Below the pieces are notes generated by a model. It had not been told where the DNA came from. It saw nothing but the letters and a program-made list of their open reading frames with translations, and searched no databases. DNA of 64,000 nucleotides from Paludibacteraceae bacterium (lineage in GTDB: Bacteria > Bacteroidota > Bacteroidia > Bacteroidales > Paludibacteraceae), in NCBI GenBank assembly GCA_017546705.1, contig JAFYSB010000008.1:4741-68740 (forward strand), given 5' to 3'. The number at the start of each line of letters is the position of its first letter. Within the stretch, counting starts at the first letter, position 1. Both the position numbers and the translations under genes were made by a program. Below are positions 5,565 through 48,515 of this stretch, piece after piece.

Positions 5565-5630
5565 CAGACCCCTCTGGCTTTCAGCCATCTCCCCTAACTT
5601 AGGGGCGAAGTCTTGGGTTAGTAATTTGGG

Positions 5631-6158: not shown

Positions 6159-6179
6159 TGCTAACAGATGGGTAACGAA

Positions 6180-14553: not shown

Positions 14554-14556
14554 TTT

Positions 14557-15435: not shown

Positions 15436-15487
15436 ATTTGTTTATCGTTTTCTTGTTGTGGTTTGTATATTCATACAAATTATCGCG

Positions 15488-15495
15488 CAAAGGTA
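15488..15495 (-). promoter_or_regulatory. -7 promoter box TACCTTTG for the lipid kinase operon
   Basis: The plus strand reads CAAAGGTA within gcgCAAAGGTAcaaaaaaaa, 53 nt upstream of the ATG at 15435. Confidence 0.55.
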
Positions 15496-15661
15496 CAAAA
15501 AAAATGCGATATATGCAAATTTTTTGGTTGAAAGTTGCAAGAAAAGTTCAAAGGCGGTATGTGAGTGATAGTCCATCTTTTATTTTAACTATATAAAGCT
15601 AAAAAACGTATCGAAAATGGATTTTCTGCAATGATTGTTTGCATATGTGCGTTTTTTTATG

Positions 15662-15669
15662 TAATTTTG
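15662..15669 (+). promoter_or_regulatory. -7 promoter box TAATTTTG for the histidine kinase gene
   Basis: Matches TAnnTTTG, 24 nt upstream of the ATG at 15693. This argues against the ORF-track start at 15639. Confidence 0.5.
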
Positions 15670-15692
15670 CCGAGAAATCAAATTTAAGGTCA

Positions 15693-33792: not shown

Positions 33793-33815
33793 GCACAATA
33801 TCCCAATTAAACGCG

Positions 33816-33823
33816 CAAAGGTA
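33816..33823 (-). promoter_or_regulatory. -7 promoter box TACCTTTG for the TonB-dependent receptor gene
   Basis: The plus strand reads CAAAGGTA, 24 nt upstream of the ATG at 33792. Confidence 0.55.
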
Positions 33824-33865
33824 CGGAAAAATTTGCATATACGCAAGTATTGAGTGCTTTTTTTA

Positions 33866-34544: not shown

Positions 34545-35144
34545 TTAAGAGGAGGAACGGCGGTGAGCAAAAGCCGCGGAGCGGATTTCTTTCTCGCAAG
34601 CACATTCCGACGAAGGGCAAGGAGTATTGTAGCCATACTCAGTACCAGGACGAAAGTCAGTGACTTCGAGGATGATCTCTTCATGGGATTGCGTTTCTAA
34701 TAGGAGGTTAGTGAACTTGTTTTCAGTTTCGCGGTCGGGTAGCAAGATACAACCTGTAGAGTGCTTTGGTTGCTTGCCTACATGGAAGCGGATCCCTTGC
34801 CTTAACGCTCCTACTCCCTTCGGTCGAGAAATCTTATTAATCTTATCTTGCTCGCTTCGTTCGCTCGGTGTACTCCGTAATCCATTGCCACCGCTCCTCG
34901 TATCGGAATCCCGATACTCGTGCGCTGAATCTTCAGTACATACGGGAGGTATGCGTGGGACGTTCTGCACGATGGGCAGAAGGCGACGGAACTTCGGAGA
35001 CATGGTGACGGCTACATGGTAGCAGAGGGCGGGGATTTGATAGCCGACACGCTCAAGGGTGTTGCAGAACCAACGACCATTGATAATAAGGCGACCAGTA
35101 ATGGCGGAGGTTTGGGGTTGATTACGGATTAAACGGATATACAT
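34545..35144 (-). CDS. DUF5675-like protein with a ~50-aa in-frame insertion and a C-terminal extension (possibly degenerate)
   Basis: The N-terminus MYIRLIRNQPQTSAITGRLIINGRWFCNTLER...AVTMSPKFRRLLPIVQNVP and the later GIRFHVGKQPKHSTGCILL match my recollection of DUF5675. The low-complexity segment between them has no counterpart. Confidence 0.5.
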   Translation of the reverse strand: MYIRLIRNQPQTSAITGRLIINGRWFCNTLERVGYQIPALCYHVAVTMSPKFRRLLPIVQNVPRIPPVCTEDSAHEYRDSDTRSGGNGLRSTPSERSEQDKINKISRPKGVGALRQGIRFHVGKQPKHSTGCILLPDRETENKFTNLLLETQSHEEIILEVTDFRPGTEYGYNTPCPSSECACEKEIRSAAFAHRRSSS

Positions 35145-35155
35145 ACTCTTTTGGT

Positions 35156-35199
35156 GTTTAGTGAACGCGCCTTAGGCGCTACTGTTTAGTGTTTAGAGG
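35156..35199. repeat. GTTTAGT-hairpin-GTTTAGT composite repeat, copy D
   Basis: Sequence gtttagtgaacGCGCCttaGGCGCtactgtttagtgtttagagg. Confidence 0.8.
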
Positions 35200-35328
35200 T
35201 CAGGAGGGGGATTTGTAGCGGTATTTATAGTCAATGCCTCGTCGTAGTACGCCATTTGCATTGACTGACGCTTTGCGTCATTGGGCAAAGGCGACTCCTC
35301 CTCTTAAAGTCGAAAACAAGTTTCGCCT

Positions 35329-35514
35329 TTATTCTTTATACCTGTATTTATAGTCAATGCCGATGAGTGAGCCGCTGAAGGTGAGTATCTCACCGAAGGC
35401 GATGAGTACGCTGTGATGAATCTCTGCTAATGGCGGGGCAATAAACCCCGCCGTCAGCATGAGACATCCAAAGACGCACAAGACTACTGATAATGTCAAT
35501 TGAATCTTTTTCAT
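35329..35514 (-). CDS. Small two-TM membrane protein (holin-like topology)
   Basis: 61 aa. Two hydrophobic helices (LTLSVVLCVFGCLMLTAGFIA and SVLIAFGEILTFSGSLIGI) and a charged C-terminus DYKYRYKE. Confidence 0.5.
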   Translation of the reverse strand: MKKIQLTLSVVLCVFGCLMLTAGFIAPPLAEIHHSVLIAFGEILTFSGSLIGIDYKYRYKE

Positions 35515-35639
35515 GATTGCCTTTTGTTTTTCATTCCCACGGATTTCTTGTTATTCCCACGGATTTCACTGATTTGCACTGATCTTCTTTGCTATCCGTG
35601 TTAATCCGTGAGATCAGTGGGAATGTAAAAAGTGTAAAC

Positions 35640-35987
35640 TTACTTGCCGTTTGCGAGTTCCTCTTTGCAAATGTGGAAGACAAAGGCATTGAGTGTTTTG
35701 AACTTGGATTGCTTGATGAATGCCGCTTGGTCACTTGCCATGAAAGCAGGGTCTTCCAAACGTTCGCGGGTCATCTGTGCGATTGCTGCGAACTGGGTGT
35801 TCCAAGTCTTTTGGTTGTCGGTGAGTTTGACTTTCTTCATCGGGTCGCGGTAGTTGGTGTAGCAAGGCATGCTGATCATGCGCTCATTGCTAGTGGGCGC
35901 TTGTCGCATGTTGAATACGACGCTGTGTGATTTACTGAGCTTGCCGCTCAAGCCAGTGATAGGGGCTGCTAAGGTTACGTGTGCCAT
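35640..35987 (-). CDS. Small hypothetical protein (paralog family with 36402..36743 and 49700..49903)
   Basis: Start taken at MAHVTLAAPITGLSGKL. Shares the G-K-hydrophobic ... T-x-x-Q ... F-A pattern with the two other small ORFs. Confidence 0.5.
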   Translation of the reverse strand: MAHVTLAAPITGLSGKLSKSHSVVFNMRQAPTSNERMISMPCYTNYRDPMKKVKLTDNQKTWNTQFAAIAQMTRERLEDPAFMASDQAAFIKQSKFKTLNAFVFHICKEELANGK

Positions 35988-36083
35988 ATGTGTTCGGCAA
36001 TCGAACACCGAGTAAAATAATTAAAAACAAAAATTGTAGAAAATTTGACCCAAAATTATCAAAAATTTCGAAGATCGTATTTT

Positions 36084-36240
36084 AAGACAATTCACGTCAA
36101 TTAAGGCGACAATTATTGACAATTATTTTTAGGAACAAAAATACGCTTCGCTACAAAAATTAATAAAAATCAATGATCATCTTTTGTTTTTGCTCTAATG
36201 AAATGCAGCAAAGCCGCATTTGGAGAGCAAAACAAAAAAG
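36084..36240 (-). promoter_or_regulatory. Repeated terminator-promoter module, copy 2
   Basis: Similar to 34351-34507. It has the same nested hairpin (CTTTTGTTTTTGCTC..AAATGC-loop-GCATTT..GAGCAAAACAAAAAAG) and lies upstream of the ATG at 35987. Confidence 0.55.
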
Positions 36241-36293
36241 TGTTTTTTACTCGGTGCTCGGAATCCTCCATGCCGTCGGAGGGGGGGGGGAGT

Positions 36294-36406
36294 GTTTAGT
36301 GTTTAGTGAACGCGGCGTTGCCGCTACTGTTTAGTGTTTAGGGGTTAGTGTTTAGTGAACGCTCGCGGGGCGAGCTACTGTTTAGTGTTTAGTGTTTAGG
36401 GTTAGG
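36294..36406. repeat. GTTTAGT-hairpin composite repeat, copy E (two tandem units)
   Basis: Hairpins GCGGCgttGCCGC and GCTCGCgggGCGAGC, each flanked by gtttagtgtttagtgaac / tactgtttagtgtttag. It contains the stop at 36402. Confidence 0.85.
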
Positions 36407-36743
36407 AGTTGGTGATGAGGTCGCCGTTCTCGTCGTATTGGCTTTTGATCTTGCTGACTACATAGCCTAAGAGCGAACCGATACGGTGTTGCTTGCGATA
36501 AGCCGATTCGTATTTGGCACGTTGCTCAGGGTCAGCAATGATGGTACGTGCAGCCTGCGTGATCTTAGCAAAGCGTGATTGTGCTTTGAGTTGTGCCTCG
36601 GTAGGTTCCTCGTCTGATGGGTTGCAGAGTTTGCCAGTGACGGTTTTGAGGGTTTGTTTGTTGGTACGGAAGTACATGTCGGAGTGTTCGCATACTTTGC
36701 CACTCATGGTTTTGACGGTGTCGATAGGACGGATTTTTGCCAT
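36402..36743 (-). CDS. Small basic hypothetical protein (paralog family)
   Basis: 113 aa. MAKIRPIDTVKTMSGKVCEHSDMYFRT...NPSDEEPTEAQLKAQSRFAKI. Confidence 0.55.
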   Translation of the reverse strand: MAKIRPIDTVKTMSGKVCEHSDMYFRTNKQTLKTVTGKLCNPSDEEPTEAQLKAQSRFAKITQAARTIIADPEQRAKYESAYRKQHRIGSLLGYVVSKIKSQYDENGDLITNS

Positions 36744-36904: not shown

Positions 36905-36928
36905 AAACCCACAGGGTTGCTGTGGGTT
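36905..36928 (-). terminator. Terminator hairpin at the end of the AT-rich operon
   Basis: AAACCCACAG-ggttg-CTGTGGGTT. On the minus strand it is followed by TTTGTTGT. Confidence 0.65.
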
Positions 36929-36991: not shown

Positions 36992-37321
36992 TTATTGAGT
37001 GACTAGGCGAAAGCCTACCCCAGGTCCATCAGAATTAGGAAAATTATACATACAATTTGTTATTGTGTTGTATCTAGAATAATATTTATGTCCTCCACCA
37101 CGTATAACACGGTATCCCTTATGTTTCGTAGAACACCATTCACCTACATTACCAGACATATCAAACAATCCCAATTCATTTGGTTTCTTTTGGGCAACAG
37201 GATGAGTATTAATGAGATTATACCATGCAACCTCATCACGAGCGCGCCATACTTCGCCGAAGGAACCACGACCTAATTTGCGGAGAAGACGATAACGATT
37301 ATGAAATAGTGTGTCTTGCAT
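36992..37321 (-). CDS. Remnant of a Ser/Thr kinase / FGE-sulfatase (SUMF1) fusion protein, with an internal deletion
   Basis: 109 aa. Residues 8-30 (YRLLRKLGRGSFGEVWRARDE) form the kinase glycine loop. They are joined directly to an FGE-family C-terminus (NELGLFDMSGNVGEWC...RVIRGG...GVGFRLV). Confidence 0.6.
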   Translation of the reverse strand: MQDTLFHNRYRLLRKLGRGSFGEVWRARDEVAWYNLINTHPVAQKKPNELGLFDMSGNVGEWCSTKHKGYRVIRGGGHKYYSRYNTITNCMYNFPNSDGPGVGFRLVTQ

Positions 37322-37390
37322 AAATGACTTAAGAAAGAGTCACAAATAAGCGAATTAGGCATTTCGTGAAGGTGACAAATATGTTACAAT

Positions 37391-39109
37391 TTACAAGTCT
37401 TTGACAAGACGGACACTCATGCCATAATAGTGTTCTTCATAGTATTCTTTCCATTCGGTTGACCCTATGCAGAATATTAGAGGGTAGTAGGAACCATCTA
37501 CTTCATATTCTGTGGACAACCAATAATATCCAATCTCTTGATAACCATCTACTGTGGTATTATATCTATAACCTGCATTGGGCAAAAATACAGCTCCAGC
37601 TTGCTCCATACGTTCCCAAGTGTTACCCTTAAAAGATTGATATGTAGCATAATTATCTAAATTCTCATTCGAGTGAAAACCTGATTTAAAAGTAACTCCA
37701 GACGGACATATCCAATTGTCTGGCAGTATGATTAAACCATTCACACTATTTACATTAGCAATTCCACATAATTTACCAGCATTAGGGCGAGTGTATCGTA
37801 GATAATACCATTCGTCATATGTTAGTGTTCGCCATGTACCTGCAGGATCGTTACCAATCTTTTTGTTGCCCCAATCAACAAATGTAGAATAGTTGGAATT
37901 AGATGTACTTTTATTAGTTGGATTATTACCCGTTCCCCATCCAAATAGATCAATCCATCCCGTATAAGATGAACTAATATTAGCATTAGAAGCACCTATA
38001 TAGTCATATTGATTAGGAGCAAAACGCCAAGTATTAGTACTTGCCTTATATTGCAAATTTCCTGATGAGAACAGGATTTGCTTGGTTTTACTTATTGAAA
38101 ATAAATTATCTGGACGATCATCATATACAGGACGAATAGAAATTCCAGAATGACGAGTTACTCCATATTTACCGACCTCACCATCTTCAAAAAATACACA
38201 AAGTCCAAAGTATGGATGAGGATCTGCTATATCGACATATAATGAACTTGTCCAATAGTACCCAGCCTTCCCTGATTCTGCCGAATTATCTCCTTCTATA
38301 ACACCTGCAGCGGGCAAGAAAATACTCTTTCCATTGGGACCTGTTACACTATATCCATTTACTCCATTACGTGTAGTCCATTTCCATACACAATTCTCAA
38401 TGAGTTCGTCTCGCTCAGAATCAGTTGGCATACGATAAGCTCCACCTAAATTGACGTGAGCAGCATCATCTGTTGCATCGAGTTTTGTCTTATTATCAAC
38501 ATTGCCATAAGCATTAGAATAACAGTATTTATTCAACGTTGTTTTAGAACCAGAACAATACTTGTAAGTACTCCATGAATAGTATTCTTTAGGATTTACT
38601 TCACCCCAAGAATAGTATTCGCCATACTCTTCTGGATTTTCCGCTCCAAGATTACACGTTGCCCATTTTACACTTAATCCCAAATCAACATAACTACTAT
38701 GACTTGCTACAGTTTGAAAAGTATAGTGCTGTTTGTGTATTTTTGATGAATAGGCATTTGATGCCTTAAAACAAAAATAATAAGACAAATTTTCTTGTAA
38801 TCCATCAATGGTTACTGAAAAATGATTCTGTTCATCAACAGGAGTCATTTGAATGGATTGAAGTGAGATTTGTTCTCCATGATTGAAAGGTAAATCTTCT
38901 ACATTTGGTGTATAAAGAATATACAAATCATCAATAGAATACTCCGTCATTACAGCACATGAAATTGTGACTCCAGTGGCAAATGGCTCGGTATTAATTT
39001 GATATATATCGAATAAATGGTATGGCATGGAAACATTCTCTTCCACACATGTGCAAAAAAATAAAGGTATCGCAATAAGAAGCAACAACTGATTATAAAC
39101 CTTTTTCAT
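37391..39109 (-). CDS. Surface lipoprotein with two FISUMP/DUF1566-like domains
   Basis: 572 aa. Signal/lipobox IPLFFCTC. SVKWATCNLGA..YYSWGE...YRMPTDSERDELI...FLPAAG, and a second copy WRTLTYDEWYYL...FLPNAGYRY...YYWLS. Confidence 0.65.
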   Translation of the reverse strand: MKKVYNQLLLLIAIPLFFCTCVEENVSMPYHLFDIYQINTEPFATGVTISCAVMTEYSIDDLYILYTPNVEDLPFNHGEQISLQSIQMTPVDEQNHFSVTIDGLQENLSYYFCFKASNAYSSKIHKQHYTFQTVASHSSYVDLGLSVKWATCNLGAENPEEYGEYYSWGEVNPKEYYSWSTYKYCSGSKTTLNKYCYSNAYGNVDNKTKLDATDDAAHVNLGGAYRMPTDSERDELIENCVWKWTTRNGVNGYSVTGPNGKSIFLPAAGVIEGDNSAESGKAGYYWTSSLYVDIADPHPYFGLCVFFEDGEVGKYGVTRHSGISIRPVYDDRPDNLFSISKTKQILFSSGNLQYKASTNTWRFAPNQYDYIGASNANISSSYTGWIDLFGWGTGNNPTNKSTSNSNYSTFVDWGNKKIGNDPAGTWRTLTYDEWYYLRYTRPNAGKLCGIANVNSVNGLIILPDNWICPSGVTFKSGFHSNENLDNYATYQSFKGNTWERMEQAGAVFLPNAGYRYNTTVDGYQEIGYYWLSTEYEVDGSYYPLIFCIGSTEWKEYYEEHYYGMSVRLVKDL

Positions 39110-39122
39110 ATATAAAATTCAT

Positions 39123-40604
39123 TTAAAATGTCCAACCTACACCTACTTCAAATTCTAAGTAATGGAAATTAATAGTATTGACGCCCGCAGACAGAGTGAA
39201 TCCTCCCATACTTGCAATTAATCCTGCATCGACACTAACACCTGTGATTGATCCTGGAGCGCACATGATCCACTCTGATGTGCCCTCTAACTGCCAATAG
39301 AGACGCGAATGACCATATCCTAAACCAACGTACATGCCAAACATGTTATTCTCATTTCGCCACTTGACATTTCTCAAGAAGTCCATTGCAAATCCCACAT
39401 TTGCAACACATTCAGAGTTTGCAGTTTGATCTGTATAAAAAGGTATCACATACTCGTCTCCATTCCTAATCACTCCTTGTTGATTACAAGTTATTCCTTC
39501 TATCGCTTCAGGAAATATGAAGTTGCTTCTTCCTTTGACATACCAACCGAATCCGTTATACAATTGTCCGAAAGTTAATCCGATACCCCAACGTAAATTC
39601 ATTGACATTCCAGCATATCCCATCAGATAGGTGTTGATTAATACTTTGTTAGATTTAGATTTTCGAAGTGGATTTAATCTAATTTGCTGATTATTTGTAG
39701 CATATACAGTCTTTGTCTCAAACCCTTTATAACTAATCTCAATCATCGCCCCTTCTTTAGTCGCAAACATAAATTTTCCATTAGAATCTGTAATTGTTAC
39801 TTTTGATGTGCCTACCTCTGCAACAGAAGCTCCATTCAAAGGTTCTCCTGTAGTAGCATTTAATACAGTACCTTTGATGGTTTGGGTAGAGTTAGCATCC
39901 GATGTTTGAAGTGGATTTAATCTAATTTGCATATTGTTTGCAGCAGATACAATCTTTGTTTCGAAATCTTTGCAAGTCACTTCAAGCATCGTACCCTCAC
40001 TGGCCGCAAGCATAAATTTTCCATTAGAATCTGTAATTGTTACTTTTGATGTGCCTACCTCTACAATAGAAGCTCCATTCAAAGGTTCTCCTGTAGTAGC
40101 ATTTAATATAGTACCTTGGATGGTTTGAGCAGATTTTGTACTTGGCATCACGTGGTCTTCAACAGGATTGTAACATACAGCTCCATCATAAACCGCATCT
40201 GATTCTAAACGATTTAGTGAAAGTATTTGTTGTTTCTGACATCCCTCACCACAAGTAAGAACAACAGTTCCCGCTGATGATGGCACCAAAAATATCAACT
40301 CATTTTCCACTTCATCTATCTTAGATTCTGGTTGATAATGTTGCCCTAAATATAAACTTAGTTTTTCTTTGGCTGCTAGCACTTGAGTTTCATTCCCCTC
40401 TAATTTTATGCGAATCACAGCATATGCAAATTTATCATCTACATTTGGATTTTCAAAATTTTGAAAGTATTTACTATACATTGCCAATACAGATGCATAT
40501 TGCAACTTCTCAAATGGCTTTATCACTTCTAATGATTGTCCTACACACGCTATAGGAGTAAAAAGTAATACAAAGACGAATAGATATGAGTAAAAATGTT
40601 TCAT
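39123..40604 (-). CDS. Outer-membrane protein: two tandem CarboxypepD_reg-like domains plus a C-terminal beta-barrel-like region
   Basis: 493 aa. Signal peptide. There are two ~81-aa repeats (TIQGTILNATTGEPLNGASIVEVGTSKVTITDSNGKF...). The C-terminus has alternating aromatic/Gly beta-strand patterns and ends ..GVGWTF. Confidence 0.6.
   Translation of the reverse strand: MKHFYSYLFVFVLLFTPIACVGQSLEVIKPFEKLQYASVLAMYSKYFQNFENPNVDDKFAYAVIRIKLEGNETQVLAAKEKLSLYLGQHYQPESKIDEVENELIFLVPSSAGTVVLTCGEGCQKQQILSLNRLESDAVYDGAVCYNPVEDHVMPSTKSAQTIQGTILNATTGEPLNGASIVEVGTSKVTITDSNGKFMLAASEGTMLEVTCKDFETKIVSAANNMQIRLNPLQTSDANSTQTIKGTVLNATTGEPLNGASVAEVGTSKVTITDSNGKFMFATKEGAMIEISYKGFETKTVYATNNQQIRLNPLRKSKSNKVLINTYLMGYAGMSMNLRWGIGLTFGQLYNGFGWYVKGRSNFIFPEAIEGITCNQQGVIRNGDEYVIPFYTDQTANSECVANVGFAMDFLRNVKWRNENNMFGMYVGLGYGHSRLYWQLEGTSEWIMCAPGSITGVSVDAGLIASMGGFTLSAGVNTINFHYLEFEVGVGWTF
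39660..40140. repeat. 243-nt tandem duplication inside the CDS
   Basis: The strings gaagtggatttaatctaatttgc and ccattagaatctgtaattgttacttttgatgtgcctacctct recur with a 243-nt period. Confidence 0.85.
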
Positions 40605-40645
40605 TCGTTAATTATATGATATATGATACATAAGATTTTAATATA

Positions 40646-43096
40646 CTAATACATTACTCCACTTGTTATCCTGTCGTAATCACTCATTGTGAATGGGATT
40701 GCGCCCTCGCTTTCTGGATGCCAAGTACGAACTCGTATTACAGGATTTTCTGTATCCTTTGCGTCAATTAGCAAAAATAGATACCCATGATCACCATAGT
40801 TCGATGAATAATAGTCTTGTAAAAGACATATACCATACATATTACGTTGGCTACTTTGTTCCACTGATGTTTGACCAAACTTAATATTAATCCATTCTTT
40901 CTGTGTTGCACGTAAACGACTAATGTAAGCTTTTTTGGATTGTCTAGTTAATTTATAATCGTTGATAAGCATTTGACGACCATCATCAAAGGTTTCCATG
41001 CGTTTAATGACACGACCTGTGATGATTACAGCATCATCTGAGAATATTTTCTCCACATAGTCCCAATCTTGAAATGCGAAAGCAGTTTGATAATTTTCCA
41101 TAAAATGTACCAAGAGCAATTTGGATGTCTCCTCAATAGTATTGCTATACATGATATTTCGCGCAGCTCGTTCGTCCAATGCAAATTGTATACCATCTAC
41201 TTTTCCAATAGCATTGTACACTAAAATTACATTTTCAGTTACCTTTTTACCCTTGGTAAATGAAAAAGTCATTGGTAAACTTCTACATTGTACATCTTCA
41301 CCGATATGTAGATACTTACATACATCAGTAGTTATTACATGAGGATTACCATAAGACATCATTCGTTGATATTGCAAGAATCCTTTTGCAGTGAAGACAC
41401 CCTCTAATGAGGTTCTATCCATATTTTTGGTTCGAATTGCTTCTACGACCTTTAATGTTAGAGTATGATATCTTGCAGAATCTTCTCCAGTGATATAATG
41501 ATATGTTTTTTGAACTTTATCTGCCACCACGTTTTGATTGATTGCTGTTGAATACCTGTTGCCTGCAGTGTTATTTACTTGCGAAATATTATACTGCTTT
41601 TGCACCAATGGAATGGTCTTAATCGCATATTGATCGTAATTAAAATTGTATTTTTTCATTAACGTTGACAATTCTGGGTCGAAATTGGCTTCCGCTTCAT
41701 AACGATAATCTAAACGAACAAACACTTGTTGTATAGCTTTGCCATCTGGAGTAAAAATGGTTGACCAACCATCTCTTGCTCCTAAAATATCACTCCATCC
41801 CTCATTAGCATTTGCACTAAAACTAATATTACTGATAGGTTCGTTATTATATCGAAAACTCAATTTGTATTCATTAGAACTTTGAGGCATATATCCATCA
41901 CATTTGATATCCACTTTCGCTAATATATCTTTAATTGAATTTTGAATATAATCTTTTGCGTAAACACCATTATACTTGATGATATCTGAATCGCCTAAAT
42001 CTGTTAATATCAATTGCGCAGCATAAAGATATCGCAAAGCATCTCCTATCGCACATTTTTTAAGATAACCTTCCGACATACCTATGTATTCTAAGACTTT
42101 GCTTTGTCTTGAATCTCTAACGCTCGTTCCAATGAGGATTTTTTTCTCAGCTAACAATTTTTTTATCTCGTTATTCTTGTCAGTATATTCTGATGCATAA
42201 TAAGACATCTCATAGGTTTCGACAAATGTAATATATGGTTGTAATTCCTCGAGTTTCGTCTGTGCTTTTTCCCACAGAGCATAAGCCTCACTAATTCTAT
42301 CTTCCAACATATAACTATCCATGTTCTCTAACCATGCAGAACAAATATCTAATTCTCCTTTTACGTAAGGACCATAGTGTTTGAGAACATCGTTGCGCTT
42401 GATATATGCGATGGCATATGCTTCTTTTTTATACTCAATTGATTCCGCACCAATTAGTATATGTAAAGCCGTATCTTTTAAAAAATATCGCTCCATCAAG
42501 GCATGTTTAGCCTTCTCTTTTAATTTAACTCCTAATCCTTTGGCAGTGCCTTGTTCAACTTCTTCCTCTTCAGCTACGAAAAAATAAGCATTACTCTCAT
42601 ATTTCATCCATTCATCGGGACGCAGCGACACCAATCCTACTTCATCATCACCAGAGCTACCACAATGTCTAAATTCGGTAAATTCATGTTTCATCCTAGC
42701 ATCTACAGACACTTGACAAAGCACATATACTCGTACCAGTCCATTCTTTAACTGTTGGCGATAGTAGCACACTTGTCGCATGGGAATACGCATTTGCTGG
42801 ATGTACTCTAACATGTTCTCATCTCCCCATTGTGCAGCATCTTTCAGTTTATCCGTATCAACAGTTAAGCCTGTTGTTGCACTCTTTGCATTTAACAAAA
42901 TCATCGCTAACGCTTTGTTTCGTGCAGACTCTTCAGAAGTTCCTGTAGCATCAGCTCTATCATAACGATACGTAGTATTTTCTGCTTTAGGTAAAGTACG
43001 TATCCAAGTAGGTTTGGCAGCATATACGTAACCAATAAAAAGCAGTAATATGATTACGCACCATCTACGATGACCAGTAGTAAGTAAATGTGTCAT
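40646..43096 (-). CDS. Large exported protein: LPP20-like N-terminal domain, unknown middle region, NTF2/SnoaL-like C-terminal domain
   Basis: 816 aa. After the signal peptide, KPTWIRTLPKAENTTYRY...SEESARNKALA parallels the N-terminus of ORF 44826..45263. The C-terminus (FMENYQTAFAFQDWDYVEKIFSDDAVIITG...WINIKFG...) looks NTF2-like. Confidence 0.5.
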   Translation of the reverse strand: MTHLLTTGHRRWCVIILLLFIGYVYAAKPTWIRTLPKAENTTYRYDRADATGTSEESARNKALAMILLNAKSATTGLTVDTDKLKDAAQWGDENMLEYIQQMRIPMRQVCYYRQQLKNGLVRVYVLCQVSVDARMKHEFTEFRHCGSSGDDEVGLVSLRPDEWMKYESNAYFFVAEEEEVEQGTAKGLGVKLKEKAKHALMERYFLKDTALHILIGAESIEYKKEAYAIAYIKRNDVLKHYGPYVKGELDICSAWLENMDSYMLEDRISEAYALWEKAQTKLEELQPYITFVETYEMSYYASEYTDKNNEIKKLLAEKKILIGTSVRDSRQSKVLEYIGMSEGYLKKCAIGDALRYLYAAQLILTDLGDSDIIKYNGVYAKDYIQNSIKDILAKVDIKCDGYMPQSSNEYKLSFRYNNEPISNISFSANANEGWSDILGARDGWSTIFTPDGKAIQQVFVRLDYRYEAEANFDPELSTLMKKYNFNYDQYAIKTIPLVQKQYNISQVNNTAGNRYSTAINQNVVADKVQKTYHYITGEDSARYHTLTLKVVEAIRTKNMDRTSLEGVFTAKGFLQYQRMMSYGNPHVITTDVCKYLHIGEDVQCRSLPMTFSFTKGKKVTENVILVYNAIGKVDGIQFALDERAARNIMYSNTIEETSKLLLVHFMENYQTAFAFQDWDYVEKIFSDDAVIITGRVIKRMETFDDGRQMLINDYKLTRQSKKAYISRLRATQKEWINIKFGQTSVEQSSQRNMYGICLLQDYYSSNYGDHGYLFLLIDAKDTENPVIRVRTWHPESEGAIPFTMSDYDRITSGVMY

Positions 43097-43133
43097 TCTA
43101 ATGTATTTTTTACAAAATGTAATATTATTTTCT

Positions 43134-44687
43134 TTAATTTAAAACAATAAGTTGTGCTTCCTGATTATTCATGCCAGGCATGGTTTCACCTAACGGAGCA
43201 TTGATATAAGTTGGATCACATACGATATATTTGCGATTATTATATACTAAATAATCGCCTTGTACATCTTGCGTAAATGCCACGGCGGTAGCCAAGTGTC
43301 CTGGATAGTAGAGGAGTACCACATCTAATCCCATTATATCTCGTATAATGCGAGAGAAGAGAATAGAACGATCTTCGCAATCGGCATACGGATAATACAA
43401 TGTTTCAGCAGCAAAGAAAGCACGATCCTTACCCCAGATCTTATCATCGTATTCATACTCAAATGCCGTTTGCACGAAATTCAATATCTTGTTTACCGCA
43501 TCGCGTTCGCTTAAACCAACAATGGATTGTTTGAGTGCAGGATACAGACTATATTGAATGGCGTTATCTAATGGTGTATTCGCATACACTGCCCAATGCG
43601 TAGTCACATCATCATTGAAAAACGATGCGGGATAATTATTGAAGAAATCAATCGTATTCTTATTTACCACCACATTGGCTGTCACACCATATTTTGATTG
43701 CAAATGGCGTGGTGTAGTCAGTTCAGCATCCAATTTCTGCTCTTTGCGCAATTGCAAAGACAGGGTTTTCTCATTATCAAATGCTGCTTCACAAATATAC
43801 AACTCGTTTTTATTGCAATTGATAGGATAGAACTTGGTACCGTCCAATTTAAAGTAAGGCATACCCACGATGCTGTATTGGCTTGCCACCAGTACATACA
43901 ATCGCGTATCATCCATTGCCAAACGCATCCTATATCCAGATTGAGAAAGTAGGAACGCTTGCATAAATACTGCCTCGTTGGTCTTGCCATACCTTTTCTC
44001 GCTTATGGCTTGTAACATCTCCACATATCCCCAATCGCAGAGTACTAAATTCTCGCGCACAGCCAACACATTGCTTAATGTAACATCGTATGCCTCTGAC
44101 GAAAGATGGCTCCAAGCCTTGGATAATTGTTTTTCGGATAGCCCTTCCAGTTTAAAGACATCATTCGTAGGAAAACCTACTGAGATCAATGTCCCATAGA
44201 ACGATATTGCATAGGGCTCATGTGGAATCTCTGGTTTTGGCTCCACAGGAGCTATTGGCTCTGGGGCTGGTAGTGGCTGTGGCACTTCAACCACATCTTC
44301 CTTCACTAGAATCGGAGTGGATTCTTCCTGGGGTTGAGGTACTGGAGCTGGCAGTGGTTGAGGCGTAGGCTTTGGGGCATCCTCTTTAGGTAGCGGTGCT
44401 GGAGCGGGAGCTGGTGTAGGGTCCTCATAGATTACTGGAGGTTGTGGTTTCTCTTCTTCGGGTGCTACTGCTGGTTGCGCGTTCCGATGTGCCCAACTAT
44501 TTTGCATAAACTCTGCATAGCGTTGGTTTTGCTTTTTGCGGAATGCATCGAACTCTGCTTGCTTATCTTGTTTGAACTGATTAAAACGAGCGTTTTGCTG
44601 CGCTTTGTAATCCTCAAATGAACGAGATTGTGCGGAAAGAGTGGTTGCCAAGGCAACTGCACCTATCAAAGTAAAAATACGTTTCAT
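43134..44687 (-). CDS. Secreted transglutaminase-like (Cys-His-Asp) protein with coiled-coil and Pro-rich linker
   Basis: 517 aa. Signal peptide, a Q/K-rich helix and a P-rich linker (PAPAPAPLPKEDAPKPTPQPLPAPVPQP). C-terminal YADCEDRSILF...YPGHLATAV...VCDPT gives a C/H/D triad spacing. Confidence 0.6.
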   Translation of the reverse strand: MKRIFTLIGAVALATTLSAQSRSFEDYKAQQNARFNQFKQDKQAEFDAFRKKQNQRYAEFMQNSWAHRNAQPAVAPEEEKPQPPVIYEDPTPAPAPAPLPKEDAPKPTPQPLPAPVPQPQEESTPILVKEDVVEVPQPLPAPEPIAPVEPKPEIPHEPYAISFYGTLISVGFPTNDVFKLEGLSEKQLSKAWSHLSSEAYDVTLSNVLAVRENLVLCDWGYVEMLQAISEKRYGKTNEAVFMQAFLLSQSGYRMRLAMDDTRLYVLVASQYSIVGMPYFKLDGTKFYPINCNKNELYICEAAFDNEKTLSLQLRKEQKLDAELTTPRHLQSKYGVTANVVVNKNTIDFFNNYPASFFNDDVTTHWAVYANTPLDNAIQYSLYPALKQSIVGLSERDAVNKILNFVQTAFEYEYDDKIWGKDRAFFAAETLYYPYADCEDRSILFSRIIRDIMGLDVVLLYYPGHLATAVAFTQDVQGDYLVYNNRKYIVCDPTYINAPLGETMPGMNNQEAQLIVLN

Positions 44688-44825
44688 ATCATTACTGTGT
44701 ATTTACATCTATTACTTATTTTCCTCTTTTTCATCGATAAATCAAAAGAGGACAGCAATAATTTTGAGTATATAAATTAATGATTTCAATAGAATGAAAT
44801 AAGTAAAATATATACATTTATTTAA

Positions 44826-45263
44826 CTATTCACAATCCGTAAAATCATCGAATTGTGGATCCACGTTACCATAGCGTGCTACCTGCCATAAAATAGATAC
44901 ACGAACATTCATATTGACAGTGCTATTCTCAATATACTCACATGCCTTGTTAAGTTGCAATCGCACTTGTGATGGTTGAACGTTGATATTGTTAATGATA
45001 TTTTGTTTTTGTTCCTCTTCGTTTGTGTTGATATCTACAGCAACACCCAGTTTCCAACGACTTTCCTGAATTGCAGCTGCAAACGCTTTGGCATAAGCTT
45101 GTTCGTATGTTCTCGCCTCTGCCGTAGTAACTCGATAATAATACATTGCCTTTCTAGGTGCCTTAGGTAGACGTGTTAACCAAGAAGGACGAGAGGCATT
45201 GATTTGTGCCTCCAATGAAAAGGCACAAACCAATGTAAGTATGACTATTACTAATCTTTTCAT
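44826..45263 (-). CDS. LPP20-like exported protein
   Basis: 145 aa. Signal peptide. RPSWLTRLPKAPRKAMYYYRVTTAEARTYEQAYAKAFAAAI is an LPP20-type pattern. 4-nt overlap with the upstream gene. Confidence 0.5.
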   Translation of the reverse strand: MKRLVIVILTLVCAFSLEAQINASRPSWLTRLPKAPRKAMYYYRVTTAEARTYEQAYAKAFAAAIQESRWKLGVAVDINTNEEEQKQNIINNINVQPSQVRLQLNKACEYIENSTVNMNVRVSILWQVARYGNVDPQFDDFTDCE

Positions 45264-45841
45264 TTTCCTTGAGCTTCTTGCATACGCTTCATCTTATCCT
45301 CTGCAAATTTGCGGAACTCTTCACGGTTGAATTCGATTTCAAGTTCTTCGTTGCGGCTCAATTGACTGGTCAAATTTTCAATCAATTGTTGTTTTGGAAT
45401 TTGAATAGCAATCCAATACTCAAATAAACCATCTTGTAAAACGAAACCTTTTTCACAGGTTTGTTGTGCATCATTTAATTCTTTTTCTACCAAAGTTGCA
45501 AATTCGCCTTCAATAATGCTTTGTACTTTAGCAGCTTGCGCCTCGCCTGCTACATTACGGCTATAATCAGTAGATAGTCCTTGAACAAAACCTCCTAATT
45601 TCTCACGTACCATAGCCTTGGCATTTTGCAATGCTGCACGACGTGCATTTTGTTGATTAACCGCTGTTGCGGTACCTGTTCCACGGTAATAATCCGCATC
45701 GTCAAATCCATTTTCAGAACATGGAATCTCAATAGCAGTACGTTGATAACCTGGATTTTGTGCTACTTGCTGAGTTTGTTTTTGACTTCCACATGACGCA
45801 AACATACCCACTGCGAGGATTGATAAAAGAAGTTTTTTCAT
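45260..45841 (-). CDS. LPP20-family lipoprotein
   Basis: 193 aa. Lipobox MFASCG. YYRGTGTATAVNQQNARRAALQNAKAMVREKL is typical of LPP20. Coiled-coil C-terminus. Confidence 0.55.
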   Translation of the reverse strand: MKKLLLSILAVGMFASCGSQKQTQQVAQNPGYQRTAIEIPCSENGFDDADYYRGTGTATAVNQQNARRAALQNAKAMVREKLGGFVQGLSTDYSRNVAGEAQAAKVQSIIEGEFATLVEKELNDAQQTCEKGFVLQDGLFEYWIAIQIPKQQLIENLTSQLSRNEELEIEFNREEFRKFAEDKMKRMQEAQGK

Positions 45842-46019
45842 TGTTTTGTGTTTTTAATTAGTTAATATTAACATTAAGCTCATCTGATATGAGTTTTTTT
45901 CAACCAATTAGACACAAAATAAAAGCGTGAAACTTGCTCTTGCCAGTTCCACCCTTAGAGGCCTTCGCATTGCCTAATCTTATAGAACCGACAACGCGAA
46001 GCCCACGCCGAATATATAC

Positions 46020-46067
46020 TAGTTGACAATTGACAGTTAACAGTTGACAGTTAACGATTGACAATTG
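46020..46067. repeat. CAGTTGA-family heptamer array (~7 units)
   Basis: Sequence tagttgacaattgacagttaacagttgacagttaacgattgacaattg. It accounts for the spurious ORF 45900..46082. Confidence 0.85.
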
Positions 46068-46362
46068 CCCCAATGACCACACCTATTGTGTATAATAATG
46101 TCGCGTATGCGTGCCTATACACGCAATAGCAACATACAAAGATGTTGGTCTGGATAGTCTATATCCCGTAGGACATCTATCGTTGCTAAGTCCTGATAAG
46201 ATTTATAGAAAGTTGCGAAGTTTCTAAGAGTCAGAACAGAGCGCTAATAAACGCCTTTATGTATGTCTTGAAAGCCATGACTGGGGAGTTTGGTCAAACA
46301 AGTTGGCTTTCCGAGAGGAGACATCTCCCTCCCTCTAAACCCCAGCGTTGAGCTTTCGGGCG

Positions 46363-46370
46363 CAAAGGTA
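46363..46370 (-). promoter_or_regulatory. -7 promoter box TACCTTTG, ~520 nt upstream of the operon start codon
   Basis: The plus strand reads gcgCAAAGGTAcaatatttttt. The only good TAnnTTTG match I found upstream of 45841. Confidence 0.5.
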
Positions 46371-46393
46371 CAATATTTTTTGCATAAATGCAA

Positions 46394-46420
46394 GAAAATG
46401 GCGAAAAAATCGCCATTTTC
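46394..46420. terminator. Hairpin terminator downstream of the RAYT-like gene and its REP array
   Basis: GAAAATGGCGA-aaaaa-TCGCCATTTTC. Confidence 0.6.
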
Positions 46421-46465: not shown

Positions 46466-46648
46466 CGGAGAATACTCGACTAAAGTCGAGATAATAGAAG
46501 AATATTTAGCAGAGATGTACCCGACTAGAAGTCGGGATAATGGAAGAATCTTTGGCGAGGATATTCCCAACTAGAAGTTGGGGCAATAGAAGAATATTGA
46601 ACGGAGTACCCGACTAGAAGTCGGGACAATGGAAGAATATTGACGAAT
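46466..46648. repeat. REP-like array: four ~45-bp tandem units, each with a hairpin
   Basis: Hairpins CTCGACtaaaGTCGAG, CCCGACtagaaGTCGGG, CCCAACtagaaGTTGGG and CCCGACtagaaGTCGGG, each followed by (a/c)aat(a/g)gaagaat. Stem changes are compensatory. Confidence 0.9.
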
Positions 46649-46652
46649 GGAA

Positions 46653-47789
46653 TTAGGAATGAGAGATGGAGCAAATCTCTTCTGCCATACCATTGAGAGC
46701 AACGCAGTCTTCGCGAGAGATGTGGTGCTTATCTGGGTCATGTTCCCAAGGACTGAGAATCAAGACACGACCTTCGGCGACGGCATCAAATAGCGCATCG
46801 GTGGGTTTGTAATAATCACGGAAACCATTGTCAGAAAGCACAATAAAAGGATGCTTCTCGGCAAGCAAGACAGACATAACCTCTTTCTCTTTAGGCGAAA
46901 TGAAAGGAGAGACCATAACCGTACCTTGGCGAGCAGCAAGAATACAAGCATTCATATAGTCGCGAAGTGGCTGGGTGTCGCCGTGTTGTTCTGCATCTTT
47001 AACCCACATGCTGCGCACATGGACGGGAGCGAAACATTTATTATGTAACAAGCGGATATTACCTACACCACTATATGAGCGCCCTGCAATCTCAATGCCC
47101 TCTTGCACACGGAAGAAACCTGGCATAATGCGCTTAGTAGCAAGGCGTTGGGGATTATTGATAATATACTGAATAGTGGCAGGTAATTGTCTGCGTTGTC
47201 CCATAGGACGGATATGCGGCATCTCTGTAAAAATAGGAAATAAAGCCCTATATTTTTCTTGACCAATGCGAGATGAAAGCGTGTCTGTGGTGGCTTGCAA
47301 AAGGGACAAAAGTTCGTGGTAGTTTTCCCGACTACAAGTCGTCAAACACCCCACCAATCCACGAGATTGGTCGGGGACCCCGCGGGCAATAGAAGAATTA
47401 TCAATGGGCGAATGAGATATAAGGAAGGAATAGGCACGTCCTATTTTCTTAACACCTTGCCAAAAGCCCTGCACTACACTTTTAATGCCGCGAGGCATCT
47501 TCTCACGCACATACCAGACGGCATGGATATGATCGGGCATTAAACAATAATGCAATACTTGTATTTCAGGGATTCGATTGGGGATATCCCATAACGCATT
47601 TACCAACATTCGACCTAAGGCAGTATATTCTACAGTAGCTTCTTTGGGATCATTGCCTGGGATAAGAAGCGTGCCTAAGAGCGGTTCGCGAGAGGGAATG
47701 GTGAGGGTAATATGATACAAGCCGACACCTTTCCATGTTGTGCCAGGCTCTTGCCATTGCCAGTTGTTATCGGAGTGGGAGGGCGTCAT
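46653..47789 (-). CDS. HUH/Y1 transposase-family protein (IS200/RAYT-like) with a C-terminal extension
   Basis: Start moved to MTPSHSDNNW (the -7 box at 47816-47823 lies inside the longer ORF). HUH motif LMPDHIHAVWYV. Downstream TIQYIINNPQRLATKRI matches the RAYT/COG1943 Y-x-x-x-N-P motif. About 140 extra C-terminal residues are of unknown fold. Confidence 0.65.
   Translation of the reverse strand: MTPSHSDNNWQWQEPGTTWKGVGLYHITLTIPSREPLLGTLLIPGNDPKEATVEYTALGRMLVNALWDIPNRIPEIQVLHYCLMPDHIHAVWYVREKMPRGIKSVVQGFWQGVKKIGRAYSFLISHSPIDNSSIARGVPDQSRGLVGCLTTCSRENYHELLSLLQATTDTLSSRIGQEKYRALFPIFTEMPHIRPMGQRRQLPATIQYIINNPQRLATKRIMPGFFRVQEGIEIAGRSYSGVGNIRLLHNKCFAPVHVRSMWVKDAEQHGDTQPLRDYMNACILAARQGTVMVSPFISPKEKEVMSVLLAEKHPFIVLSDNGFRDYYKPTDALFDAVAEGRVLILSPWEHDPDKHHISREDCVALNGMAEEICSISHS
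47322..47407. repeat. Interrupted REP unit inside the RAYT-like CDS
   Basis: cccgactacaagtcg + 43-nt insert + ggcaatagaagaattatcaatgg, translated in frame as ..DNSSIARGVPDQSRGLVGCLTTCSRENY.. Confidence 0.65.
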
Positions 47790-47815
47790 AAAGGGGGAAT
47801 ATTGAAATAATGGTG

Positions 47816-47823
47816 CAAAGGTA
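47816..47823 (-). promoter_or_regulatory. -7 promoter box TACCTTTG for the RAYT-like gene
   Basis: The plus strand reads CAAAGGTA, 27 nt upstream of the ATG at 47789. Confidence 0.55.
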
Positions 47824-47885
47824 GTGAAAATTTGGCAGATGAGCAAATTTTGGATAGGAAAAGTAGATGATTATAAGGGTAATGG

Positions 47886-47937: not shown

Positions 47938-48036
47938 GAAGAGCAGGGGCTTAAGAGGATTGCGGGATTTTGCCTGATAGGCTGGGGGGAGGGGATAACG
48001 TGCCAATGGGGCAAGAGGCATGTGAAAAGAAAAGCG

Positions 48037-48044
48037 TACTTTTG
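48037..48044 (+). promoter_or_regulatory. -7 promoter box TACTTTTG
   Basis: Matches TAnnTTTG, ~110 nt upstream of the ATG at 48153. Confidence 0.4.
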
Positions 48045-48152
48045 CAGCGCATTCGCAGAGCGAGTTTGAAAGGGTTAAACTGCTGGTGCGAAGCTAATAA
48101 AAAACTTAACCCAAATCGGTTATTGGATTTGGGTTTTAACAACAAACGCTTT

Positions 48153-48473
48153 ATGACAAAAAACTTGGAAAATGTGGTACGCAAGAATGTGCTGCAATTG
48201 ATTAACAAACATGACATCAACAAACAACAAATGGCATTGGAACTGGGAATGGATCCAGGACATCTGAGTCGCGTGATTAGCGGGAAAAGAAGTGTCACGA
48301 TGGAACATGTGGAGAAGTGGGCAGCGTACTTTGAGATTTCAGCCGCAGAACTGATGAGTGAACCGCATGTGAACGTGAAGTGTGGCGATGATCAGGTGAT
48401 ACGTATCGACCTGCATGTGCCGCATTACGATGCGTATATACGGCTGAAAAGAATGATACAAGAGTTGTACTAA
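48153..48473 (+). CDS. XRE-family helix-turn-helix protein
   Basis: Start chosen at MTKNLENV. NKQQMALELGMDPGHLSRVISGKRSVTMEHVEKWAAYFEISAAELM is a classic HTH_3 pattern. Confidence 0.65.
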   Translation: MTKNLENVVRKNVLQLINKHDINKQQMALELGMDPGHLSRVISGKRSVTMEHVEKWAAYFEISAAELMSEPHVNVKCGDDQVIRIDLHVPHYDAYIRLKRMIQELY

Positions 48474-48515
48474 TTATGAATTAAGAATTTTGAATTATGA
48501 AGTCTGAATATGAAG
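48471..48515. repeat. GAATTAT heptamer array spanning a start codon
   Basis: Sequence taattatgaattaagaattttgaattATGaagtctgaatatgaag. The ATG at 48497 is inside a repeat unit. Confidence 0.8.

Follow-up and report, generated by a model that had tools for sequence, protein, structure and literature searches.

An AT-rich block of exported-protein genes in a Paludibacteraceae genome is a variant of an envelope module conserved in Bacteroidales

Overview of the module

The stretch of DNA analysed here, 64,000 nucleotides (nt) of a Paludibacteraceae metagenome-assembled genome (MAG) and hereafter referred to as the window, harbours a block of seven minus-strand genes at positions 36992-45841. This block is the Paludibacteraceae variant of a module conserved across Bacteroidales, the conserved unit of which consists of four protein families rather than of seven genes: an LPP20-like lipoprotein, an "anchor" protein combining LPP20-like and NTF2-like domains, a stalk protein carrying a shared terminal domain (the N-domain), and a transglutaminase-fold Cys-His-Asp enzyme. 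To this set the lineage adds a soluble LPP20 paralogue, w145. Each component can be placed in an established superfamily: LPP20/SHS2, NTF2-like, transglutaminase-like, the beta-sandwiches of transthyretin-like type, or the FGE/FISUMP domains of C-type-lectin-like type. No characterised system unites them, and the module appears to be of a previously undescribed kind. In agreement with the first-pass annotation of this DNA, which knew of no characterised pathway with this gene combination, no system-level match was obtained in NCBIfam, PADLOC or Rfam, and no publication describing the module was found in literature searches.

All seven co-directional open reading frames (ORFs) of that annotation are present in the ORF listing at the same coordinates. 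They are tightly packed, with a 4-nt overlap at 45260/45263 and gaps of 13, 41 and 37 nt as originally described; two larger gaps, of 138 nt (44688-44825, between w145 and w517) and 69 nt (37322-37390, before the last ORF), had not been mentioned. Export signals were read by eye from the translated sequences. A lipobox is found in w193 (FASC/GSQ) and a lipobox-like FFCTC in w572, while w145, w517, w816 and w493 start with signal peptides, three of which end just before Gln; the 109-amino-acid (aa) product of the last ORF has no export signal. Thus six of the seven products appear to be exported, as had been claimed for everything except the kinase/FGE remnant. Three of the window proteins are MBR5443137, MBR5443138 and MBR5443140 (IKV22_01960, IKV22_01965 and IKV22_01975), and the annotation of every product of the block reads "hypothetical protein".

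Recurrence across Bacteroidales

A scan of species-representative genomes led to the identification of 80 loci, all ORFs of which were annotated with profiles built in this analysis. Gene order is conserved among them, and they are distributed over Paludibacteraceae, Bacteroidaceae, Prevotellaceae, Rikenellaceae, Muribaculaceae, Odoribacter, Prolixibacter and Salinivirgaceae. Most of the related loci belong to Bacteroidales of the gut and rumen. Carriers include Segatella copri (NZ_CP146520, around 565-568 kb) and Odoribacter laneus YIT 12061, for which an orthologous gene pair lies at L047 9632-11455 and 11466-13643. The anchor is present at all 80. One or more N-domain proteins are encoded in the co-directional block at 62 of the 80 loci and directly downstream of the anchor at 39 of 79, the LPP20-like lipoprotein (of the A4 family or the related F6 family) was found at 45/80, and the transglutaminase-fold enzyme at 41/80. 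FGE heads occur at at least 20 of the 80 loci, FISUMP-like heads (relatives of w572) at seven, and the C-terminal domain (C-domain) of the w493 type at six. A metagenome scan seeded with the lipoprotein (alignment A11) added 32 further loci, in which the lipoprotein gene comes first and is followed by those for a 143-aa LPP20 protein, for either an LPP20 protein of ~275 aa or the anchor, and for the transglutaminase-fold enzyme. The core of the module therefore co-occurs in 80 genome and 32 metagenome loci, which decisively contradicts the refuting condition set at the outset, namely that co-occurrence would be confined to this strain. The seven genes are real; as a conserved unit, however, the seven-gene block does not stand, with w572 and the w493 C-domain recurring at only seven and six of the 80 loci.

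A much larger relative of the locus was encountered at L006 (969-21973) and L007. Here there are in addition a signal-peptide-less TIR-FGE-sulfatase protein, a caspase-like Peptidase_C14 protein with CARDB, proteins with DUF4384 and with RyR domains, a Sel1 protein whose terminus is formed by the N-domain, and a membrane protein of 840 aa; the whole looks like a sensor/effector elaboration.

The anchor protein w816

In the AlphaFold2 (AF2) model (pLDDT 79), the signal peptide of the w816 product (40646-43096, 816 aa) is followed by a pair of LPP20/SHS2-like domains of beta-alpha-beta-beta fold (aa 43-130 and 171-233), a bundle of helices (aa 234-367), a beta domain (aa 395-463) and two NTF2-like domains (aa ~537-640 and 656-800). 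The secondary structure of aa 43-130 is E-H-(H-H)-E-E. The Foldseek matches of the NTF2-like part, all at a probability of 1.0, are 1gy7, 2r4i, 3b7c, Bd1075 (7o21) and dioxygenase beta subunits; the full-length search is dominated by the NTF2 domains, and whole-chain E-values reach only 2e-3 to 2e-2. There is no Pfam match in w816, and its N-terminus taken alone gives no PF02169 match. Meanwhile, the N-terminus of the Odoribacter orthologue matches PF02169 (E 2.8e-5) and the S. copri orthologue resembles the NTF2-like Cds6_C (E 1.6e-3, below the cut-off). The proposed LPP20-like N-terminus of this protein is thus supported by the model, by the A5 family profile described below and by the orthologue, and the NTF2-like C-terminus by predicted structure, but neither by a Pfam match of its own.

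Relatives of w816 form 55 protein clusters. Full-length anchors of the w816 type are confined to Paludibacteraceae, and no species-representative genome has a close (>47% identical) copy of w816. In other Bacteroidales the anchor is ~600-640 aa long and comprises one LPP20 domain together with a region homologous to aa ~330-800 of w816.

The LPP20-like proteins w193 and w145

The first gene of the block, w193 (45260-45841, 193 aa), encodes a small lipoprotein distantly related to LPP20, and w145 (44826-45263, 145 aa) a secreted protein with a single LPP20 domain, which is a paralogue of the w816 N-terminus (blastp E-values of 4e-15 to 3e-8 against anchor N-termini). Their own PF02169 scores, 13.8 bits for w193 and 14.7 bits for w145, are below the gathering cut-off of 25.9. 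The family profile A4 of w193 matches Helicobacter pylori Lpp20 (PDB 5ok8) over nearly the full length with an E-value of 2.3e-4, the match taking in the signal-peptide region. In the case of w145, an alignment of its relatives and the anchor N-termini (A5, 26 members) was used; 19 of the 26 members match PF02169 at E<=0.01 (best E 3.6e-8), and the A5 profile matches PDB 4kzs ("LPP20 lipofamily protein") with an E-value of 1.2e-6. The description of these two products as small LPP20-like proteins is consequently upheld at the level of family profiles, though not by the Pfam cut-off applied to the proteins themselves.

The known relatives of this fold share several traits with the module. H. 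pylori Lpp20 and the LPP20 family (PF02169, IPR024952) are represented by a small outer-membrane lipoprotein of beta-alpha-beta-beta fold that is encoded with paralogous partners, and profile-level similarity was seen for w193, w145 and the anchor N-terminus. FlgP of the flagellar basal disk, a protein of LPP20/SHS2-like fold, forms rings under the outer membrane (PMC12222027) and so illustrates that the fold can build large assemblies underlying this membrane. In contrast, no flagellar genes are present at the window locus, the window proteins are below the Pfam cut-off, the Lpp20/FlgP systems have no counterparts of the NTF2 anchor, the transglutaminase-fold enzyme or the PEGA/lectin proteins, and the beta-hairpin insertion with which FlgP forms its rings is outside the comparison.

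Both genes, together with 175 nt of upstream leader, form a duplicated "head" (44816-46016, minus strand), which is 91.4% identical at the DNA level over 1202 nt to positions 9825-11025 of L095. The latter is a second locus of the window's own MAG and holds P0337, the w193 copy MBR5442928.1 (IKV22_00900). Positions 46152-46276 of the window also resemble L095 9618-9739. The 1.2-kb head precedes a different downstream gene set at each of the two loci, in the manner of a reusable operon "head".

The N-domain and the stalk protein w493

The feature that unites the variable proteins of the module is the N-domain, which the first-pass annotation overlooked. In the product of w493 (39123-40604, 493 aa) this uncatalogued domain of ~120 aa occupies aa ~24-145 (40170-40535, minus strand). 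It has no Pfam match. By blastp, counterparts of the first ~145 residues of w493 were found in many proteins encoded nearby, at either their N- or their C-terminal end. A word-indexed search with the N-domain alone returned no matches, while an exhaustive phmmer search returned 133 clusters, and hence the empty result reflects a failure of sensitivity rather than absence. In these clusters the domain is always located at the extreme N- or C-terminus. Among 83 proteins scanned, its fusion partners are PEGA (37), CarboxypepD_reg (30), FGE-sulfatase (14), LRR_5 (BspA-type LRR; 11), Lcl_C (9), Sel1 (7) and TonB_C (2); WG repeats are found as well. In other Bacteroidales, the PEGA proteins encoded after the anchor carry the N-terminal motif D-x-N-G-x-x-C-A-[LI]-I-K-V ... 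G-E-I-W-x-Y-V-P, and hhalign aligned the w493-type N-domain with their N-termini at a probability of 98% (E 1.9e-13), a score somewhat inflated by the signal peptides contained in both alignments. Because the domain is strictly terminal, is joined to interchangeable binding modules and is encoded beside a conserved partner, it is probably a docking or sorting domain.

The N-domain of w493 is followed by two CarboxypepD_reg-like beta-sandwiches and a Gly/aromatic-rich C-domain ending in ...GVGWTF. The duplicated CarboxypepD_reg domains described previously are confirmed: w493 contains two copies, the Pfam gathering score is passed (PF13715/PF13620, 80.7 and 65.3 bits against cut-offs of ~32), and CarbopepD_reg_2 matches two stretches (E 8e-23). 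At the DNA level they form a tandem duplication with units at 39658-39893 and 39901-40136 that are 86-87% identical. No gene of the block varies more between strains than w493, which is 95% identical to its counterpart in the same-species contig L001, the other genes reaching 98.6-100%. Another contig, L002, differs by ~100 nt in the duplicated region.

The C-domain is always C-terminal in 31 relatives and has no Pfam or PDB match, the search of its A6 profile against PDB giving nothing relevant. The only traits suggestive of a barrel are the richness in Gly and aromatic residues and the terminal Phe. Given an OMP_b-brl E-value of 0.66, no PDB match and an hhalign probability of 9.5% against OMP_b-brl_2, an outer-membrane barrel was rejected, and the "barrel-like C-terminus" once attributed to this protein lacks support. 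The two beta-sandwich repeats do resemble the CarboxypepD_reg N-terminal extension of SusC/RagA (PDB 9hfj, 6sli). However, w493 has neither a Plug domain nor a 22-strand barrel, so the resemblance stops at the level of this domain, and the interpretation of the module as a Sus locus was dismissed. The N-domain, the w493 C-domain and the anchor region between the LPP20 and NTF2-like domains constitute three pieces without a Pfam model.

The transglutaminase-fold enzyme w517

The secreted product of w517 (43134-44687, 517 aa) begins with a long helix, followed by a Pro-rich linker (aa ~70-155) and a transglutaminase-fold domain with a Cys437-His464-Asp491 triad. These three residues are invariant among 42 sequences. 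Foldseek searches with the AF2 model (pLDDT 87, pTM 0.83) retrieved LapG structures (4u65_E, 4fgq and 4fgp) at probabilities of 0.98-1.0, in addition to 3isr, 3kd4, PNGase and vasohibin. The Pfam model Transglut_core (PF01841) scores 15 bits (E 0.03), which is below the cut-off of 23. The assignment of a transglutaminase-like Cys-His-Asp protein with a Pro-rich linker is accordingly backed by fold and by the invariant triad, but not by the Pfam gathering score.

The closest structural counterpart of the catalytic domain of w517 is LapG. Both enzymes are periplasmic, w517 by prediction, both have a Cys-His-Asp triad, and both are encoded beside proteins with a shared terminal domain which such an enzyme could clip. 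On the other hand, TM-scores on the LapG side are just 0.45-0.48, and w517 possesses an additional N-terminal helix, the Pro-rich linker and middle domains. The BTLCP (LapG-family) model is missing from the Pfam and NCBIfam matches of w517, and none of the loci examined contains genes for LapD (a c-di-GMP receptor), type I secretion or RTX adhesins. With no BTLCP match, LapD, type I secretion or giant RTX adhesin, the module was not accepted as a Lap system. The transglutaminase-fold gene is often paired with one for a ~165-205-aa protein (L013 10001-12372, L010 12474-14615 and L012 6030-8131), which contains a single membrane helix at its N-terminus, gives no match in Pfam and is absent from the window.

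Lectin-fold proteins

The product of w572 (37391-39109, 572 aa) is a lipoprotein with an fn3/Pur_ac_phosph_N-like N-terminal domain (aa 79-132, E 6.5e-4 against Pur_ac_phosph_N) and two FISUMP/Lcl_C-like repeats of lectin fold. The FISUMP model TIGR02145 matches aa 336-572 only, with an E-value of 2e-4 and 22.1 bits, below the cut-off of 41.65; no FISUMP match was obtained for the first half of the protein, nor any with Pfam (PF09603, Fib_succ_major). What was called a double FISUMP-type lipoprotein therefore shows, by this model, a sub-threshold match in its second half and none in the first. Over 241 aa, w572 is 45% identical to the product of L006 18667-20226 (fn3 and a weak Lcl_C). It has no N-domain and is an accessory rather than a core component.

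The last gene of the block (36992-37321, minus strand, 109 aa) joins a start resembling a kinase Gly-loop to the C-terminal ~80 aa of a domain of the FGE-sulfatase type. The latter part matches positions 146-254 of the 255 in the PF03781 profile (E 4e-13, 50 bits against a cut-off of 23.3), whereas residues 3-31 match the N-terminus of MAD6/PknB kinases. The contig L001, which is 98.9% identical, carries an intact allele encoding a 295-aa secreted FGE-sulfatase protein (114.6 bits). In place of the 5' 663 bp of the L001 gene, the window has 150 bp (37241-37390) with the kinase Gly-loop-like start. The notion of a decayed kinase/FGE-sulfatase gene is thus correct as far as a true remnant is meant. 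The FGE gene can nevertheless not be treated as peripheral, FGE/PEGA proteins being the commonest partner of the anchor. In profile searches, FGE-sulfatase and CarboxypepD_reg are the only two of the original domain calls that pass curated cut-offs.

Non-catalytic-looking FGE-sulfatase domains in exported Bacteroidota proteins are also characteristic of PorK/GldK and GldJ of type IX secretion and gliding, and GldK is the best NCBIfam match. The FGE genes of the module score only 40-73 bits against GldK/GldJ cut-offs of 350-458, though, the module has no PorL/M/N or Gld neighbours, and its FGE gene is decayed in the window strain. In view of these scores and neighbours, a type IX or gliding component was excluded. 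A bacterial FGE-domain protein, OCTIN, forms high-order oligomers in the periplasm (PMC5915273).

Retroelement targeting of lectin heads

Two independent diversity-generating retroelements target the 3' end of lectin-head genes, one at L095/L096 and one at L067. At L095 and L096 the genes that follow the head copy encode proteins of LPP20-like and LpoB-like type, an FGE-sulfatase protein of 426 aa, a protein with HRDC and a reverse transcriptase. The variable region of L095 (14210-14355) is the 3' end of the FGE gene, and its template is located at 15927-16072; the HRDC gene (14468-14938) and the reverse transcriptase gene (14935-15948) are the same in L096. Variable region and template differ at 23 positions, 20 of which are template adenines. 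L067 belongs to an uncultured Bacteroidales MAG, in which the target, a protein with four PEGA domains and Fib_succ_major (E 6.5e-25), is encoded 3.5 kb from the anchor gene (5012-6811). Here the variable region (1353-1546) and the template (2198-2391) are accompanied by a reverse transcriptase gene (2522-3517), and 38 of the 39 mismatches fall at template adenines. Such targeting indicates that, in at least two lineages, the lectin heads are surfaces that bind ligands and experience diversifying pressure. In the window, neither a reverse transcriptase (tblastn) nor an A-biased repeat pair was detected, and no hypervariable stretch was seen among five same-species contigs that are ~99% identical.

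Periplasmic proteins diversified by retroelements are known in Bacteroides (10.1101/2024.11.15.621889), and the reported targets of retroelements include PEGA domains (10.1101/2020.04.01.020958). The heads of the module resemble the published variable proteins of C-type-lectin fold (FGE-type TvpA of Treponema; periplasmic BovT/BfiT of Bacteroides) in being C-terminal FGE-sulfatase/FISUMP domains of exported proteins. The published Bacteroides proteins differ in that they are pilin-like or phage-borne and are not linked to LPP20, NTF2 or transglutaminase-fold genes.

Composition, neighbourhood and origin

The block is indeed AT-rich relative to the rest of the window: its GC content is 0.372 against 0.456 in the remainder, and the GC content at third codon positions (GC3) is 0.24-0.38 (mean 0.28) in the seven genes compared with 0.485 +/- 0.075 in 34 other window ORFs, which places the difference at synonymous sites. 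The window ORFs 160-1974 and 10282-10752 are also low in GC3 (0.30 and 0.34), and the module is therefore not the sole AT-rich coding stretch. Of 21 Paludibacteraceae loci, 20 have a module GC3 lower than that of the flanks, and the low GC content is therefore in part a lineage-wide property of the module; the other Bacteroidales show no trend. With a deficit of -0.20, the window is at the strong end of the Paludibacteraceae range.

On one side the block is flanked by beta-helix, OMP_b-brl_2 and Rho genes. The aroQ, OMP_b-brl_2 and beta-helix genes directly precede the module at 14 other Paludibacteraceae loci. In the window, an insertion of ~4.4 kb, consisting of HTH_3 and AAA_25 genes (47970-49549), an ORF with an HUH motif and REP-like units, separates the module from the beta-helix and OMP_b-brl_2 genes; the insertion is present in L001 too, where aroQ (DHquinase_II) stands directly before these genes. 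Protein divergence amounts to 42-82% for the block, compared with 50-58% for the flanking outer-membrane protein in 12 of 13 relatives and 37% in one.

The first-pass annotation suggested a horizontally acquired surface or periplasmic assembly, considered here in the form of a strain-specific, recently acquired seven-gene surface or adhesion island. The contrast in GC (0.372 against 0.456) and GC3 (0.28 against 0.485) fits this view, as do the mobile-looking neighbours (REP-like units, the HUH-motif ORF, HTH_3 and AAA_25, DUF5675), a gene order unlike the usual one in Paludibacteraceae, and the lack of a close w816 copy in species-representative genomes. Yet the aroQ/OMP_b-brl_2/beta-helix neighbours are common to 14 other loci of the family, the block is about as divergent as the flanking outer-membrane protein, the low GC3 recurs at 20 of 21 loci, and the seven genes have not been passed on together. 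Horizontal acquisition is accordingly not established, and such an island seems improbable. Allelic replacement from a relative of lower GC content is possible.

Possible function of the module

The interpretation that we favour, with about an even chance of being correct, is that of a scaffold tethered to the outer membrane, on which stalk-and-head proteins with ligand-binding capacity would be docked, and whose enzyme would process or cross-link them. What was observed is gene adjacency, protein fold and the targeting by retroelements; from these we infer every step of the mechanism. By analogy with FlgP, the LPP20-fold proteins may build a scaffold attached to the outer membrane on its inner face. 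The N-domain would dock stalk-and-head proteins onto the anchor encoded immediately upstream, and beta-sandwich stalks (PEGA/CarboxypepD_reg), represented here by w493, would carry lectin-fold heads (FGE-sulfatase or FISUMP/Lcl_C) or another module. The heads could bind ligands in the periplasm or at the surface, and the set of heads would be swapped between genomes and hypermutated in some lineages. LapG clips LapA, and the Cys-His-Asp enzyme might likewise clip the docked proteins, or else cross-link them in a transglutaminase-like manner. The periplasmic side is favoured by the fusion of TonB_C to the N-domain and by the sequence of w193, which has no acidic stretch after the lipidated Cys.

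Several points weigh against this interpretation. Retroelements were found at only two of ~115 loci and not in the window. The family of the transglutaminase-fold enzyme, with >5,500 matches against 55, is far larger than that of the anchor, and its gene also occurs in a two-gene unit amid housekeeping genes (L013); the enzyme may therefore have a general role in the envelope. The w193/w145 head also fronts L095, which lacks the anchor, an N-domain protein and the transglutaminase-fold gene. Moreover, the window's own LPP20, Transglut_core and FISUMP scores are under the curated cut-offs. Docking of the N-domain on the anchor is a conjecture from gene adjacency, and the heads may face either the periplasm or the surface.

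The same components could instead form a purely architectural lattice, a polymer of LPP20-fold, NTF2-like and FGE-fold proteins beneath the outer membrane whose members the enzyme would cross-link to each other or attach to peptidoglycan, the role being mechanical (membrane stability, spacing, vesicle control) and not one of ligand recognition. High-order assemblies have precedents in the rings of FlgP (PMC12222027) and the periplasmic oligomers of OCTIN (PMC5915273), the GldK/GldJ models are the best NCBIfam matches of the FGE genes, an LpoB-like domain is encoded at the paralogous locus L095, a transglutaminase fold with a Pro-rich linker able to span the periplasm would fit, and the module is chromosomal, syntenic and lineage-wide. 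Exchangeable heads (FGE, FISUMP, LRR, Sel1, WG repeats, TonB_C) and hypermutation by retroelements are, however, hardly expected of structural proteins, and the FGE gene is evidently dispensable in the window strain, where it is decayed; we consider the lattice unlikely. Far less credible is that there is no system at all and that unrelated genes for exported proteins happen to lie side by side. Clusters of hypothetical secreted proteins are common in Bacteroidales, which counts for this view, and most window proteins have no significant family matches. The neighbourhood census contradicts it, as the same four protein families are adjacent at more than 100 loci from several families within Bacteroidales, with gaps of 4-41 nt in the window; mere coincidence is thus very improbable.

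A third alternative is an envelope threat sensor or conflict system, whose periplasmic lectin-fold heads would recognise an invader (phage parts, toxins) and either capture it or pass a signal on to effectors in the cytoplasm. FGE-type lectin domains diversified by retroelements reportedly occur in published conflict systems, and this was counted in its favour along with the TIR-FGE, caspase-like Peptidase_C14, DUF4384, RyR and Sel1 proteins of L006/L007, the kinase-like start of the window remnant fused to FGE, and the differences in accessory genes between genomes. Against this, the sole PADLOC match in the window is the 30-residue, generic kinase Gly-loop of the remnant (MAD6/PD-T4-6 kinases), six of the seven window proteins are exported with no cytoplasmic effector among the intact genes, TIR and caspase are limited to one locus type, and the core is syntenic rather than island-like. 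This reading seems doubtful. A bolder form of the docking interpretation, to which we give a slightly better yet still low chance, is that of a recognition platform: a dock at the inner face of the outer membrane for exchangeable, sometimes retroelement-hypermutated lectin receptors, which would monitor whatever reaches the surface or gets into the periplasm, with the enzyme clipping or covalently trapping the bound target; this might be phage parts, bacteriocins, type VI effectors, or host or dietary glycans. If true, it would represent a Bacteroidales-specific envelope recognition system in which both the docking domain (the N-domain) and the anchor protein are new.

The communities of gut and rumen are dominated by Bacteroidales, and much of the envelope proteome of this order has no assigned function. 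The present analysis turns an anonymous block of hypothetical proteins into a defined, testable module of four recurrent families, and the finding of one terminal domain on many different binding modules hints that the envelope of Bacteroidales has a principle of its own for docking or sorting. Should the docking and processing model be true, it would constitute a new way to organise periplasmic or surface receptors, beside Sus-like systems, type V pili and type IX cargo; should docking prove wrong, the module is still conserved and worth a knockout. The cultured carriers Segatella copri and Odoribacter laneus could serve as study hosts, provided that genetic tools exist.

Boundaries and flanking features of the block

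The block is closed by a terminator-like hairpin (36906-36928, minus strand) of nine pairs, five of them G-C, followed by TGTTGTATCT, a T-rich tail, in accordance with the hairpin noted earlier at this end. After the hairpin, a promoter-like TAtcTTTG motif is found at ~36890. The region downstream of the terminator (34545-36743) contains 113-aa and 122-aa ORFs without family matches and a gene for a DUF5675 protein; beyond these, a SusC-like TonB-dependent receptor is encoded at 31303-33846.

At the other end, both described features are present, a heptamer-based array of TGTCAAC/TGTTAAC units (46021-46069) and a set of four REP-like units (46483-46663), which are 46 nt long and all contain a CCCGACTAGAAGTCGGG palindrome. 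The 397-aa ORF abutting the latter (46653-47846) has no Pfam match and displays an HUH-like PDHIHAV motif seen by eye; it may encode a divergent REP-associated transposase, although its "RAYT" label is unverified.

No Rfam family matches the w193 leader, and Rfam and tRNA scans of the window were empty. Apart from a short motif, the leader is kept only in the L095 duplicate. In L006, L029 and L036, this motif, of (T)GCCGAAA(N)GCC type, precedes the lipoprotein gene by ~70 nt. In the region upstream of w193, a strong hairpin is located at 46394-46420, and a Bacteroidetes-type promoter-like element (TTG ... TAcctTTG, ~46363-46393, minus strand) lies ~500 nt upstream of the gene, which implies a long 5' leader.

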